The notes: generated by a model not told the origin, from the letters alone. Shown: positions 337 to 5,372, counted from the stretch's first letter. The stretch: 64,000 nucleotides of DNA from Clostridia bacterium (GCA_017404545.1 JAFRCC010000022.1:8750-72749), one strand, 5' to 3'. Numbers and translations are program-made.

Positions 337-430
337 AGTTATTTGGTAGGCGTGGCCCTCTCCTACATCTCTAAGGTATAAATACCCTATCAGTACCATC
401 GGCGTACGGTCGGCACAATATTTTACCACC
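337..430. repeat. GC-rich conserved intergenic element, copy 1 (about 92-94 nt; second copy at 5281-5372)
   Basis: agttatttggtaggcgtggccctctcctacatctctaaggtataaataccctatcagtaccatcggcg... matches 5281-5372 almost exactly over the first 66 nt. Hairpin potential GTAGG-N11-CCTAC. Confidence 0.6.
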
Positions 431-472
431 ACATATATCCTTTTATATTGTACTTAGATTATATTATTTCTA

Positions 473-940
473 TTACCTTATAAGCATTAATCTATCTAAT
501 ATTCTTTTATCAAATATATTAAGAACATTTTCAAATGCAGCTCTACTAAAAGCACTACCATTATCTCTAAAATAATATTGACTAGCATCCTCTTTGGCCT
601 CATCAACTAAGACTTTATATGACCAGTATCTTATAATCCAATATCTTAAAGCTATTAAGTTATTTCTTGTTGTTTTGTTCTGTTCCGTATTTACATTATT
701 TACAATAACTCTTCGATAACATGAATAAAAGTCATAATATCCAACCAACCTTATCTTGTCATTTCCATACTTTTTCCAAAGTGCCTCATAAACTTGTTCA
801 GGATTATATACATTGCTACAAGCATCCATGTAATAGCCATCTCTTAATACTTTATCTACTATTTCAATATCGTTTTTTATCTCAGCATATTTATCATCTT
901 TTGTTTTTTCTTTTAATAGTTCGTATATACGCTGTATCAA
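473..940 (-). CDS. Hypothetical protein, paralog of 17960..18466
   Basis: 155-aa ORF. Shared blocks with the 168-aa protein at 17960..18466: VYEALWKKYG / VFAELYKKYT and LRYWIIRYW / LRKWIVRYF. No recognisable catalytic motif. Confidence 0.5.
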   Translation of the reverse strand: MIQRIYELLKEKTKDDKYAEIKNDIEIVDKVLRDGYYMDACSNVYNPEQVYEALWKKYGNDKIRLVGYYDFYSCYRRVIVNNVNTEQNKTTRNNLIALRYWIIRYWSYKVLVDEAKEDASQYYFRDNGSAFSRAAFENVLNIFDKRILDRLMLIR

Positions 941-969
941 TTCAATTTCTCCTTTCTAGTTATTTTTAA

Positions 970-2031
970 TTATAAACTTATATCTTTAGCATACTCATAT
1001 GAAATAATTTCATTTTCTTCTGTATTCTTGTAGGCTTTTTCTTGATGCATTTTATCAACAATTAATTTCGTACTCATTCCAATAACCATATCTAAGACTT
1101 TATCTATTACATTTTTTTCATTTTTTGCTAGTGGTTCAACATCATATTTATCATTTGTAAATATATGACAACCTTCTGTAATAGTTCCATCATCAGCTTC
1201 AAATTCTTCTACTTTGCTACTAATAGATTTTAATCTAGTTATTTGGTTGTAACCGATTGGTAATGCTCCCATTGGTTTATGCTCATATACAAGACCAGTT
1301 AGTGATTCATTATACTTTTTAAAGTATAGAAAGTCACAATACCATAATATCTTCATCAGTTTAACCTTATATAAATTATCTACTTTATTTGCAATATAAT
1401 TTACTATGCCCTCAAGTTTCCTAATGCTGATTTTTTTATAACCACATTTAACGTTATCTTTATCATAGCTCATATACTTAGCTAGTAGCTCTTGTTCATT
1501 TAGGTAATACAAACTAAACTCAGCAACCATATCTTTTATCTTATTCTCTATCTCTTTACATCTATCATTAGATACCTTTTTTGATAACTTATCTTTATTT
1601 TCGTTATAGCAATCTAATAAGAACAAGCTGTTACTATCTATTGTTTTTAAGATCTTATCATGGCTATAATCTTGTATCTGTTTTGTTTCATATCTTGTTA
1701 TAGTTATTTCTCCCCATCCAAGTATTAGGGAAAGCTCAGCTTGATTTAAGTTATATTTTTTTCTAATAGCTTTTATTTGATTTGATGTTAATAAATTATT
1801 CTTTTTTCTGTATTCATCTCTTGCTCTTAATAAATTAGAATCTAATAGCTCTCCAGAGACAAATTCATTGTCTTCGTTTGCATTAGTACATAAATAATAC
1901 TCTTCTTGATATGTTACTTCTTCATCTTTAATAATAGCAACTTGCTTTCTTGTTTTTAATTGAACCTCATGATTTTGTCCGCATATTGGACAATCTAAAA
2001 TAACACTACTTTTCATAATACCACCTCTCAT
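970..2031 (-). CDS. Antitoxin-like fusion: MqsA/YgiT-type zinc finger, XRE-HTH, and a C-terminal region read as Panacea (DUF4065)-like
   Basis: N-terminal CPICG...C zinc-finger pattern. HTH region LTSNQIKAIRKKYNLNQAELSLILGWGEITITRYE. C-terminal KLMKILWYCDF...TGLVYEHKPMGALPIGY resembles the KLQKLLYYAQAW...GPVVPEVY hallmark seen in the Panacea protein at 5822..6307. Directly follows the toxin-like gene 2034..2447. Confidence 0.55.
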   Translation of the reverse strand: MRGGIMKSSVILDCPICGQNHEVQLKTRKQVAIIKDEEVTYQEEYYLCTNANEDNEFVSGELLDSNLLRARDEYRKKNNLLTSNQIKAIRKKYNLNQAELSLILGWGEITITRYETKQIQDYSHDKILKTIDSNSLFLLDCYNENKDKLSKKVSNDRCKEIENKIKDMVAEFSLYYLNEQELLAKYMSYDKDNVKCGYKKISIRKLEGIVNYIANKVDNLYKVKLMKILWYCDFLYFKKYNESLTGLVYEHKPMGALPIGYNQITRLKSISSKVEEFEADDGTITEGCHIFTNDKYDVEPLAKNEKNVIDKVLDMVIGMSTKLIVDKMHQEKAYKNTEENEIISYEYAKDISL

Positions 2032-2033
2032 AC

Positions 2034-2447
2034 CTATTTATATGGAAAGAACATAACCTTATATTTAGCATGGTGAAAAGAAAAACAAAAAATCTTACGA
2101 TTCTTAACACTTCTAATCTTCACTTTAATATAAATATCTTTCCCCTGAATCCTTTTATTAAAAACATATAAATATGGTAAATTTGCATCCTTTCTATCTA
2201 TTCCAGTTTCTACATAATCTACTACTTTTAATTTTTTTATTTCGTTTAAAACATCATTTCTATCGTAATTTAAACTTAACATTGTATTCATAGTTGAGTA
2301 CTTATCATTTGGTTCATTTTTAATAAGCAAATCAAAATCATATAAAGTATTAAAATTTGGTGAATTTGTAATTGTATTAATTGTATCTAAAAATTGCTCT
2401 ACATCATCTTTTGTGGATTGAAACTTATCCTTCATTTGCATCACCAT
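2034..2447 (-). CDS. Putative MqsR/RelE-like type II toxin
   Basis: 137 aa. C-terminus GKDIYIKVKIRSVKNRKIFCFSFHH resembles the E. coli MqsR C-terminus GQVYLKITVIHDVLIVSFKEK. Gene order is toxin first, zinc-finger/HTH antitoxin second, as in mqsRA. The true start is probably the MKDKF Met. Confidence 0.4.
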   Translation of the reverse strand: MVMQMKDKFQSTKDDVEQFLDTINTITNSPNFNTLYDFDLLIKNEPNDKYSTMNTMLSLNYDRNDVLNEIKKLKVVDYVETGIDRKDANLPYLYVFNKRIQGKDIYIKVKIRSVKNRKIFCFSFHHAKYKVMFFPYK

Positions 2448-2451
2448 TTAC

Positions 2452-2480
2452 AATATACTATCAATTGATAGTTTTGTCAA
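2452..2480 (-). promoter_or_regulatory. Sigma-A-like promoter with embedded palindromic operator for the MqsR/MqsA-like operon
   Basis: On the minus strand: TTGACA, then 17 nt, then TATATT, immediately upstream of the ORF. The spacer holds a perfect 16-bp palindrome ACTATCAATTGATAGT (2457-2472), a typical autoregulation site for an HTH antitoxin. Confidence 0.5.
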
Positions 2481-3690: not shown

Positions 3691-3696
3691 AATTAT

Positions 3697-4716
3697 CTAT
3701 TTTTCCTTATATTCGTTATATAACCTACCTCTATAGCTAATTTTCCCAACCTTAGCCAATCTACCAACAATAAAGCTCATTGGTATTTTAAATCTCTTTG
3801 ATACGGATAATAAACTATCTGTCTTAATATCACTTAAAACTATATCCCACACTCCATCATTCACCATAGTTTTTATTGCAAAATCATCAGCTCTTTGCTC
3901 TATTTTATCATCCCCATCAATAATTGTTTTGCTCTTTGCTTTATTGTAATCGCTCTTACAATGACCAAGTTCATGAAATAACTCAAAATAAAATGAATCT
4001 TTTGCCGAATAGTTTTTAGTTATATATATAGCCGGAGTATTTAGTTTAACTCTAAAGCAACCTCTTACTTTTGTTCCTGGTAAAGTTTTCTCGCATACAA
4101 AGATAATACCATACTTATTTAATATCTCTTGTATTTTATTTATATCTAACCCCTCTTTATATGCATATTCTTTTAGCTCATATATTAAATCATCAAATTT
4201 AGAGCTTTCATATTCTCCTACATGTTGGCTTTCTGAAATCTTATCACAATGAGCAATCCATAAAGCAAGCTTATTACTATCTTCACCGCTCTTTTTAAAT
4301 AAAACATTTTCCATTAGACTATTGTTCGTTTCGAAATCTTTAACTTTCAAAAAGTCTAAAATATCTATGCTATTTTGTATAGTATTCGTTTCATCTTTAA
4401 AATCCACCCATTTTAATTTCTTTAGTTCGTTTAAATGGTATTCTTCTTTTAACATCCTCTTAATCTCATCTTCAGACCCATATTGTTTAAGTAATTTATT
4501 TTGTATGATATTAGCATTTTCAATTGAAACAATTAACTTCGATGAAATGCCAGTTAATCTTTCAATAGTAGCAGCCATCTCCAATGTAATACTTGTTTTA
4601 CCATTAATTATTTCATTCATATGTTTTTGCGTAACACCAAGTCTACCCGCAAACTCACTTTGAGAAATATTATAATATTCAAGATAATCTTTTAAATACT
4701 CTCCAAAATGTACCAT
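3697..4716 (-). CDS. XRE-family HTH fused to an ImmA/IrrE (M78-type) zinc metallopeptidase domain
   Basis: N-terminal HTH ISQSEFAGRLGVTQKHMNEIINGKTSITLEMAATIERLTG. C-terminal HEXXH motif ELFHELGHC. Confidence 0.65.
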   Translation of the reverse strand: MVHFGEYLKDYLEYYNISQSEFAGRLGVTQKHMNEIINGKTSITLEMAATIERLTGISSKLIVSIENANIIQNKLLKQYGSEDEIKRMLKEEYHLNELKKLKWVDFKDETNTIQNSIDILDFLKVKDFETNNSLMENVLFKKSGEDSNKLALWIAHCDKISESQHVGEYESSKFDDLIYELKEYAYKEGLDINKIQEILNKYGIIFVCEKTLPGTKVRGCFRVKLNTPAIYITKNYSAKDSFYFELFHELGHCKSDYNKAKSKTIIDGDDKIEQRADDFAIKTMVNDGVWDIVLSDIKTDSLLSVSKRFKIPMSFIVGRLAKVGKISYRGRLYNEYKEK

Positions 4717-4803
4717 TCTTCTCCCTCCTATCCATCACCATAGTGTTTATCATCTATAGATATAAATTCAAGTTCATAAACCTCTTCTAATTCATATGGG
4801 TAT

Positions 4804-4992
4804 TCATTTACTGGTTTCATCACTAATCTTAATTTTTGATTCAACCTTGCTGTATAATACTCTTTTAGAGCCCCGCTTCTTCTTTTCAATATTATAAATA
4901 ATATGTAAGCTATCTTGCATAACTTCTTTCATACTTTCAGAAGATATAAGAAACTGCTCTATTTTCTCTAGTAGAATCATTTCTTTATTCAT
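4804..4992 (-). CDS. Small hypothetical protein (62 aa) upstream of the HTH-peptidase gene
   Basis: ORF only. Its position is where a partner gene for the HTH-peptidase would be expected. No motif recognised. Confidence 0.25.
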   Translation of the reverse strand: MNKEMILLEKIEQFLISSESMKEVMQDSLHIIYNIEKKKRGSKRVLYSKVESKIKISDETSK

Positions 4993-5121
4993 ATGTTTAT
5001 TTTTTTATTTAGCTCTGTAATCTTTGGTATATGCTTTTGTTTTTATTATCTTGATCTTTATCACCTCAGCCCTTTAATATATTATAACATTTTAGGTTAT
5101 AATATACAATAATAATTACAA

Positions 5122-5152
5122 TATAGGGGCAATAATATTTATTGCCCCTATA
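5122..5152. terminator. Perfect 14-bp inverted-repeat hairpin, a putative bidirectional terminator
   Basis: tataggggcaataa-tat-ttattgcccctata, flanked by AT-rich runs. Confidence 0.4.
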
Positions 5153-5280
5153 ACATTCATAATTATAAAATATCTCAACCATTATTTCAATCAGAATCGT
5201 ATGATATAATTCGACAAAACCTTATTTCTTAGCGTAAAATATGCATTACTCCATAATTGAAGCAATGCATATTTAGCTTT

Positions 5281-5372
5281 AGTTATTTGGTAGGCGTGGC
5301 TTTCTCCTACATCTCTCAGGTATAAATACCCTATCAGTACCATCGGCGCGTGGCCCGCCCAAATTTACCACC
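5281..5372. repeat. GC-rich conserved intergenic element, copy 2 (about 92 nt)
   Basis: agttatttggtaggcgtggctttctcctacatctctcaggtataaataccctatcagtaccatcggcgcgtggcccgcccaaatttaccacc. The 3' third diverges from copy 1 but stays GC-rich with hairpin potential (GGCG-cgtggcc-CGCC). Confidence 0.6.

Follow-up and report, generated by a model that had tools for sequence, protein, structure and literature searches.

In the passages that Weinberg et al. (2017; PMC5737381) devote to skipping-rope RNA (Rfam family RF02924), the RNA is described as a highly conserved motif which is followed by a Rho-independent terminator and rarely lies in 5' untranslated regions (UTRs). According to the same passages it is not a riboswitch, showed no self-cleavage in tests and is tied to a nearby protein family, and they assign no function to it. 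Rfam annotates a pseudoknot with covariation support for RF02924 (PMC7779021), and a full-text literature search found no functional study of skipping-rope RNA after 2017. Here we identify two copies of this RNA in a stretch of 64,000 nucleotides from a Clostridia bacterium (GCA_017404545.1 JAFRCC010000022.1:8750-72749; hereafter the window, with positions counted from its first letter), and we describe the PBECR2 and PBECR3 domain genes that stand beside most of its relatives. The PBECR domains were defined by Iyer et al. (2017; PMC5512222), who predicted that they act as metal-independent RNases which virions carry and inject; the paper mentions no RNA partner. Two described arrangements resemble the one reported here. 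In nuclease colicins, the immunity gene comes right after the nuclease gene and is served by a further, constitutive promoter of its own (PMC9742991). Behind MuF-fused BECR-Tox3/DUF6883 domains there is commonly a small conserved protein, DUF4926, taken by the authors for an immunity protein (preprint 10.64898/2026.08.28.747851). The explanation that we favor, with a probability of roughly 60%, is that the two elements in the window are skipping-rope genes, that the RNA of this family is the partner of an RNase, and that the window copies are orphan relics in a toxin-antitoxin (TA) island.

The original prediction, made from the sequence of the window alone, had noted a GC-rich element that occurs twice and is nearly identical over ~66 nt in an AT-rich background. 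A small RNA, a 3'-UTR element and att-like direct repeats of a decayed integrative element were offered as candidates, and an Rfam scan and a covariation analysis of homologs as ways of checking. The direct repeats lie at 322-418 and 5266-5362 and are 87% identical over 97 nt without a gap; from positions 337 and 5281 on, they share 63 of 66 positions. Their G+C contents are 45% and 48%, compared to 28.6% for the whole window, and the repeat pair is no chance match. The Rfam scan of the whole window at gathering thresholds gave a single match, skipping-rope RNA at 5381-5282 on the minus strand (copy 2), with 57.5 bits (E = 4e-11) against a gathering score of 36.7 and covering model positions 1-80 of 80. 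In a permissive scan of the first 8 kb, copy 1 (439-338, minus strand) matched the same model over its full length with 35.1 bits (E = 2.3e-5), which is 1.6 bits under the gathering score, so that copy 2 passes the threshold and copy 1 narrowly misses it. Judged by these model scores, both repeats are genes for the known RNA family RF02924. The family itself is already known, and it is the context of the window copies that is modestly interesting.

Relatives were collected with a degenerate pattern derived from the conserved junctions of the RNA, with which the IMG/VR contigs and the contigs of one genome per species in GTDB were scanned; each scan yielded at least 120 stretches. In the viral set, 119 of the 120 listed matches are plainly skipping-rope RNAs, representing 58 distinct sequences. 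An alignment (A1) was made of 57 viral sequences and the two window copies, and a covariance model (R1) was built from it. R1 finds exactly two copies in the 64-kb window, copy 2 with 95.4 bits over 5279-5384 and copy 1 with 77.3 bits. Among the matches listed for the genome set, R1 recognizes 114 copies in 100 of 120 loci, and the remaining loci without a convincing R1 match are probably chance matches of the pattern. Some 230 relatives were gathered in this way from the two sets.

In A1, the structure comprises P1 (10 bp), P2 (5 bp), P4 (5 bp), a hairpin inserted in the P3 region, of which 3 bp were scored, and a pseudoknot of 6 bp that joins the P2 loop (consensus CGUGGC) to the final part of the P4 loop (GCCACG). 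Standard pairs fill 95.7% of the cells, and both partners vary in 19 of the 29 pairs. No observed measure was reached by any of 500 shuffles, and pairing fell to 30-43% when the 3' partners were slid by 1-3 columns. The pseudoknot helix taken alone is 94.5% paired with compensatory changes in 4 of its 6 pairs, and the arms of P1 covary with four to five pair types per position. Homologs and a conserved structure were thus found, all helices and the pseudoknot covary, and the small-RNA candidate is the one borne out, as both copies belong to a curated family of structured RNAs. The window copies share the RF02924 junctions UGAGG (UGUGG in copy 1), GAGAGAUG and CCAAA. Two details of the original description change once the strand is known. 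The divergent segment taken for a GC-rich hairpin is in fact the loop and the 3' arm of helix P2 on the minus strand. The weaker similarity that begins with cgtaaaa does exist, but it lies 3' of the RNA rather than upstream, since the functional strand is the minus strand. In copy 2 this stretch forms a terminator-like hairpin.

The RNA family occurs across phyla and in phages. Tandem arrays of two to four skipping-rope RNAs were found at L186:823-1290, L187:4737-5022, L214:2262-2507, L171:835-1205 and L201:2734-2942 (contig handles with positions); they usually follow one PBECR2 open reading frame (ORF), and the scores differ between the copies within an array. BLASTN searches gave no match for copy 2 in phage and plasmid collections and none for a canonical phage-type RNA in cultured phages, and a tblastn search with the PBECR2 domain gave one match, to an unannotated record. 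These searches leave the family without an anchor in any named, cultured phage.

To define the protein neighbors of the RNA, the ORFs lying up to 4 kb away from the viral RNAs were all clustered, and six-frame fragments were searched with PBECR hidden Markov models (HMMs). One protein family was present in 94 viral loci, always on the strand of the RNA, and its ORF mostly ends 27-41 nt before the RNA. Pfam assigns it to phage minor capsid protein 2, carrying PBECR2 (phage Barnase-EndoU-ColicinE5/D-RelE-like nuclease 2; 1.2e-14) at its C-terminus, and the genes for the scaffold and the major capsid protein lie further downstream. In bacterial genomes PBECR2 is often a solo ORF of 125-190 aa that ends 14-60 nt before the RNA, and in a Clostridium subfamily the linked domain is PBECR3 (Pfam 1.4e-30). 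Starting from the RNA, a PBECR domain was found immediately upstream on the same strand for 86 of 120 viral and 70 of 114 genomic RNAs among the matches listed, and about one third of the listed RNAs have no PBECR within 4 kb. Starting from the protein, the RNA was found 27-41 nt after the domain in 78 of 80 PBECR2 loci from IMG/VR, several of them with tandem RNAs; this sample is redundant and biased to one subfamily, the query being an alignment of six PBECR2 sequences from RNA-linked loci. The other two loci are a contig that ends inside the RNA and one locus without the RNA. No conserved small protein was found in the slot after the PBECR2/3 ORF in the clustered loci; the RNA fills this slot. 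PBECR2/3 is the associated domain as identified here and may differ from the protein family meant by Weinberg et al. (2017). A perfect 6/6 pseudoknot is present in 82 of 105 linked RNAs (78%) and in 38 of 53 unique orphan RNAs (72%), and many orphan RNAs score as high as linked copies. The perfect pseudoknots of the orphans suggest that the RNA probably also works without an adjacent PBECR gene, in which case the window copies might be functional.

Promoters were scanned for in the 62 nt before P1 of 108 unique PBECR-linked loci, using TTGACA-(16-18)-TATAAT. A sigma70 match of at least 10 of 12 positions was found in 92 of these loci, with a mean of 10.4 compared to 7.9 in shuffled sequences. 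The -10 box ends 15-18 nt ahead of P1 in 75 of the 92, and an extended TG is present in 52 of them. The -35 box reads TTTACA in 73 cases and is encoded by the conserved Leu-Tyr-Lys (LYK) codons at the C-terminus of the domain. Downstream, a hairpin with a U-run is located within 100 nt in 121 of 205 unique loci, starting at a median of 13 nt past the RNA and with a median free energy (dG) of -14 kcal/mol. These predicted signals show the family unit to be a putative transcription unit of its own, consisting of a promoter inside the end of the RNase ORF, a ~100-nt RNA and usually a terminator. Such units are embedded midway within phage late operons or placed behind solo RNase genes.

We infer that the skipping-rope RNA is a dedicated partner of the PBECR2/3 RNase. 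By analogy, the RNA would most likely act as an antitoxin or immunity factor by which the lysogen and the producing cell are guarded against the nuclease, and it would take the slot that is filled by a protein immunity gene beside nuclease colicins and other MuF-fused BECR toxins. The BECR fold counts colicins D and E5 among its founding members. The immunity mechanism is put forward tentatively, with a chance that we place close to even but short of it. In a different role, the RNA would serve the phage head as a structural or packaging component, comparable to the phi29 pRNA, with intermolecular pairing of loops and PBECR as docking protein. The phage RNA does lie between minor capsid (gp7/MuF-like) and scaffold genes, covariation is blind to whether the loops pair within or between molecules, and tandem arrays of two to four copies exist. 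We consider this role very unlikely, as the linkage tracks PBECR even where the domain forms an ORF by itself (125-190 aa), the domain keeps its predicted catalytic motifs (alignment A7), orphan RNAs stand beside housekeeping genes, and the sigma70-type promoter and the terminator suggest expression outside the late operon.

In the window, every gene within the first 6.3 kb is encoded by the minus strand. The features around the two RNA copies are as follows:

338-439, minus strand: skipping-rope RNA copy 1, degenerate.
473-940, minus strand: ORF of 155 aa without a Pfam or PADLOC match; copy 1 starts 33 nt past its stop.
970-2031, minus strand: MqsA-HTH (helix-turn-helix)-Panacea fusion antitoxin (Pfam SocA_Panacea 1.7e-17, MqsA_antitoxin 5e-7).
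2034-2447, minus strand: MqsR-like toxin (Pfam MqsR_toxin 1.3e-4, under the curated cut-off).
5236-5271, minus strand: terminator-like hairpin UAUGCAUUGCUUCAAUUAUGGAGUAAUGCAUA, beginning 10 nt past copy 2, dG -16.7 kcal/mol.
5282-5381, minus strand: skipping-rope RNA copy 2, with P1, P2, the P3 region plus an extra hairpin, and P4 intact.
5389-5427, minus strand: promoter-like hexamers TAGATA-18-CATAAT and ATCACA-18-TATAAT, overlapping the 3' end and stop of the 140-aa gene.
5399-5821, minus strand: putative toxin of 140 aa with a RelE/YafQ/HigB-like fold, paired with the Panacea antitoxin; copy 2 begins 17 nt past its stop.
5822-6307, minus strand: Panacea (SocA-like) antitoxin-domain protein (Pfam PF13274, 6.7e-24).

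Both repeats therefore lie 3' of minus-strand genes, as the original prediction had placed them, and each RNA copy closes an operon containing a Panacea antitoxin. No PBECR2- or PBECR3-like ORF or stop-to-stop fragment was found in any frame of the 64-kb window (best E 0.06-0.9), and in the absence of a PBECR gene both copies are orphans. The 140-aa and 155-aa ORFs were considered as hidden PBECR domains and rejected at the level of sequence (E = 0.9-6); for the 140-aa protein, the predicted structure is RelE-like. The AlphaFold2 model of the 140-aa protein (pLDDT 78) has RelE-superfamily toxins as its top 31 Foldseek matches in the PDB and as nearly all of its top 49, including RelE, YafQ, YoeB and HigB with TM scores of 0.55-0.69 on the target. 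On this model, the protein is a predicted RelE-superfamily toxin, having the BECR fold but no PBECR domain; its C-terminal part matches NsnC of PADLOC (2e-13). For the 155-aa protein, two homologs were found in all and the AlphaFold2 model is unusable (pLDDT 46). A paralog at 17960-18466 is 27% identical, and no RNA follows it.

At all 35 positions with at least 95% conservation among the viral references, copy 2 agrees with the consensus. In the P2 loop, UUUGGGCGGG stands where the family has UUUCGUGGCA, and pseudoknot complementarity reaches at best 4 of 6 pairs with wobble included (best of ~29 sliding windows), which in our judgment is probably near chance. Copy 2 is, as far as its sequence tells, an allele without the pseudoknot yet still homologous to the family. 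Its terminator-like hairpin occupies 5271-5240, followed by UUUU at 5239-5236, and the hexamers before it are placed where the PBECR-linked relatives carry their sigma70 match. Copy 1 deviates at three of the 35 conserved positions, including the A to U change that gives UGUGG for the near-invariant UGAGG. It furthermore has two P1 mismatches, two P2 wobble pairs and a 5/6 pseudoknot, and its terminator hairpin is mostly gone by deletion. These lesions mark copy 1 as apparently decaying. Folding z-scores were +0.8 for copy 1 and -1.7 to -1.9 for other alleles; single-sequence minimum-free-energy folding misses the consensus fold even in intact alleles and is uninformative here.

The variation in related strains was analyzed at loci encoding P0121, a 99%-identical version of the 140-aa toxin (L259-L266). 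These loci carry canonical alleles with an intact 6/6 pseudoknot in L259 and L266 and, as a partial copy, in L265. The L260 allele has the canonical P2 loop, a G to A change in the pseudoknot strand of the P4 loop and a truncated 3' arm of P1. L261 carries the pseudoknot-less allele of the window, L263 a further mutated version of it, and L264 combines a P2 loop like that of copy 1 with a lesion in the invariant GAGAGAUG. Extra RNA copies stand behind other small modules: L261 has three copies, L262 has a copy of the copy 1 type directly after the MqsA-Panacea gene with no 155-aa ORF, and degenerate 3' halves of the RNA follow Gp49-HTH modules in sister strains. Relatives of copy 1 are progressively damaged (6, 8, and 11 lesions at conserved positions), and in L255, beside cas12a, both pseudoknot loops are deleted. 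At L255:1990-5685, an 84%-identical homolog of the 155-aa protein and the RNA remnant lie directly upstream of cas12a-cas4, which mirrors the position of the window beside the putative cas9 gene. Copy 2 combines the P2 allele of the third L261 copy with the 3' flank of the first, and its terminator flank follows a different RNA copy in L261. Read from these alignments, the alleles and lesions indicate relaxed selection on these orphan copies, and they indicate frequent recombination and gene conversion between copies, which would reshuffle the modules of the island. The window copies are probably relaxed or decaying leftovers that would serve today mainly as dispersed homology for recombination.

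A check of related strains for excision-type polymorphism of the intervening 4.9 kb had been proposed; what the strains show is changes of gene order and allele exchange with breakpoints inside the RNA copies, which fits homologous recombination between dispersed copies. The candidate that the repeats are att- or attC-like recombination sites of a cassette array or of a decayed integrative element draws on the same data, as the direct repeats bracket TA modules, sister strains reorder modules with RNA copies at the junctions, and copy 2 is a mosaic of L261 copies. Ordinary homologous recombination between 90%-identical copies explains this shuffling. The arms of P1 covary freely and contain no conserved core site such as GTTRRRY, the G-U pairs are strand-specific, the pseudoknot covaries in a family spread across phyla and phages, the usual context of the RNA is inside phage head-morphogenesis modules and not at element ends, and no integrase was found among the annotated ORFs between 473 and 21222. 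Taken together, this makes recombination sites a highly improbable identity for the repeats, and this part of the original prediction is not supported.

The other candidate, a 3'-UTR element, is true by position only. In its fuller form, it would make the RNA a 3'-UTR or terminator module of the TA operons, or an extra RNA antitoxin for the RelE-like toxin. The copies start 17-33 nt behind the gene that closes a Panacea operon, copy 2 has a terminator, copies in sister strains follow other small modules, and the fold of the 140-aa toxin belongs to the same BECR superfamily as PBECR. The homologous modules speak against it. A Panacea gene precedes the toxin in seven of seven fetched homolog loci wherever upstream sequence is present, indicating that the pair is a conserved PanAT module; among these seven toxin homologs, an RNA follows in the P0121 loci only. 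At the six more distant homologs (79% to 32% identity) no RNA was found with filters off and E up to 1, and the alignment with the window ends precisely at the stop codon. An RNA that is an integral part of the Pan-toxin module was rejected on these two grounds. Moreover, the 155-aa paralog has no RNA, the 155-aa protein is predicted, with low confidence, to be all-helical, and the family RNA has its own promoter. A role of the RNA as part of these operons is in our view distinctly unlikely.

A general link between the RNA and Panacea was considered as well and rejected. A local Panacea HMM, which is narrow and missed the MqsA-Panacea fusion, gave three matches among the RNA-first ORFs of the viral set (the gene before copy 2 itself, L006 and L042) and none in the genome set. 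Pfam analysis of 140 non-redundant neighbors of 61 orphan RNA contexts showed no enriched family, with Panacea not among the families seen twice; these neighbors are housekeeping genes, phage genes and a few TA genes. We read the Panacea adjacency as a lineage-specific result of RNA copies spreading in a cassette-like TA island, with a local function being possible. In AT-rich phage contigs of 150-165 kb (IMG/VR L006, L017, L022, L027, L028 and similar ones), an orphan short-form RNA follows a Bro-N/antirepressor-like gene, and the gene slot after this RNA varies between contigs; a Panacea-domain gene occupies it in L006 and L042.

Orphan copies might also be more than relics. If the family RNA is an immunity factor, chromosomal orphans, among them the window copies and in particular intact alleles of copy 2, could be functional immunity RNAs, transcribed by the host island to neutralize PBECR RNases that phages bring along in their heads and inject, as a decoy or inhibitor form of RNA defense. 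This would parallel the orphan immunity genes of bacteriocin and polymorphic-toxin systems, and it is in line with the orphans that keep a 6/6 pseudoknot and score like linked copies. Copy 2 itself lacks none of the 35 core bases and is flanked by promoter-like hexamers and a terminator. The island around the copies is one of TA and defense genes beside CRISPR-Cas, L255 likewise stands beside cas12a, and sister strains have intact alleles at the copy 2 locus. The idea depends, however, on the proposed immunity mechanism. Copy 2 has lost the pseudoknot that is kept by the great majority, copy 1 and its relatives gather lesions at near-invariant positions, and several independent damaging variants among near-identical strains look like relaxed selection. 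Defense genes are not enriched near other orphans. We therefore regard such guarding orphans as unlikely.

Several observations weigh against the favored explanation of an RNase partner with orphan relics in the window. A substrate, a cofactor or a packaged RNA would account for the linkage to PBECR just as well, and the protein-first test shows tight linkage within one PBECR2 subfamily, not across all PBECR domains. About one third of the family is orphan, and 72% of these RNAs keep a perfect pseudoknot. Regarding the window, copy 2 has none of the 35 possible core lesions, and the promoter-like sites near both copies are no commoner than in shuffles, which in this AT-rich region makes them weak evidence. 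Finally, two of two window copies stand right after Panacea operons, which, as Panacea is not enriched near other orphans, is unlikely by chance, and the favored explanation does not fully cover it.

The first ~21 kb of the window reads as one TA/defense island around a CRISPR locus. A CRISPR array of at least 12 repeats with a 66-nt period (6472-7302) lies beside a minus-strand type II-A cas operon (7360-13127), in which csn2 (7360-8043) is supported by Pfam and candidate cas2, cas1 and cas9 genes are assigned by ORF size (8040-8360, 8350-9222, and 9207-13127). A KAP-family P-loop NTPase (15881-17056) and a DUF2806 protein (20257-21222) are found among HigB/YoeB-like and HTH genes. The candidate defense module PDC-M03 A/B (HipS/HipA-like) is duplicated at 2644-3420 and 18698-19690 with 85-86% DNA identity, one copy (2654-3320) being truncated and the other (18708-19779) fuller. 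Overlapping ORFs of 62 and 53 aa at 4728-4992 (minus strand), without a Pfam match, look like a frameshifted HigB/RelE-type toxin gene and precede an HTH-Peptidase_M78 gene (3697-4716). Also on the minus strand, 5122-5190 holds a near-consensus promoter (TTGAAA-17-TATAAT) and, no more than 10 nt further on, a strong hairpin of 14 bp with a T-rich tail; this might represent a very short transcript or an attenuator for the module that comes next.

Two sequence motifs recur in this region. The motif TCGTATGACATAATTCGACA is present near ~3656-3697, 5190-5225 (a copy near 5198 was spotted by eye), 6309-6370, 15525-15566 and 20164-20234, just upstream of several TA/defense modules, and is a possible common promoter or operator of the island cassettes. 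The palindrome TGTCGAAAyATGCAAT-N9-ATTGCATrTTTCGACA is intergenic at 13323-13378, 27496-27551 and 30205-30260. A close relative at L241:3520-3580 follows a Pan-toxin module in another metagenome contig, and the palindrome looks like a shared operator or terminator box.

The window elements are ordinary members of a curated family that has lacked an assigned function since 2017. What is gained concerns the family: its near-obligate place after PBECR2/3, a strong promoter in the end of the RNase ORF and the occupation of a slot known for protein immunity genes together lead to a testable RNA-immunity hypothesis. If the RNA does neutralize the RNase, it would represent a new kind of RNA antitoxin for widespread phage-delivered effectors, and orphan copies in host islands would be candidates for RNA-based anti-effector defense. 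For annotation, the lesson is that such GC-rich islands in AT-rich Clostridia are small RNA genes and recombination hot spots, not att sites.

Compared to the integron attC arrays, the locus likewise has ~100-nt structured repeats 3' of successive small TA cassettes and a gene order that varies by strain. Unlike attC sites, the repeats have no R'/R'' cores and no integrase in the annotated neighborhood, they contain a pseudoknot, GNRA loops and strand-specific G-U pairs, and the main home of skipping-rope RNA is the phage morphogenesis operon. With PanAT (Kurata et al., 2022; PMC8832971), the two operons before the RNAs share the combination of a Panacea antitoxin and a toxin, one RelE-like and one MqsA-fused. 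PanAT has no RNA component, the RNA is missing from most homologs of the same module, and Panacea is not enriched near other skipping-rope RNAs.

The type III TA systems (ToxIN, CptIN and TenpIN) resemble the family arrangement in that an endoRNase is combined with a cis-encoded, pseudoknotted RNA, in their relation to phages and in occasional tandem copies, the neutralization being in the present case a proposed one. They differ in that the antitoxin consists of ~36-nt tandem repeats upstream of the toxin, with a terminator in between, and is processed by a toxin of the ToxN fold. The skipping-rope RNA is a single ~100-nt RNA downstream of a BECR toxin, with its own promoter and with the terminator after the RNA, and it has no such repeat array.

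RF02924 itself shares with the window copies P1-P4, the conserved junctions, the pseudoknot partners and, in copy 2, the 3' terminator. The window copies differ by having no associated protein gene, by the loss of pseudoknot complementarity in copy 2 and by the score of copy 1 under the gathering score. For the family as a whole, the closest parallel is found in the immunity genes of the colicins (E2-E9, D, and E5) and of BECR-Tox3/DUF4926, which likewise come right after the gene of a BECR-fold nuclease, in the same orientation and with a promoter of their own in the 3' end of the toxin gene. The product of the skipping-rope gene is an RNA instead of a protein, and the likeness to these systems would be one of a possible mode of action and not of membership.

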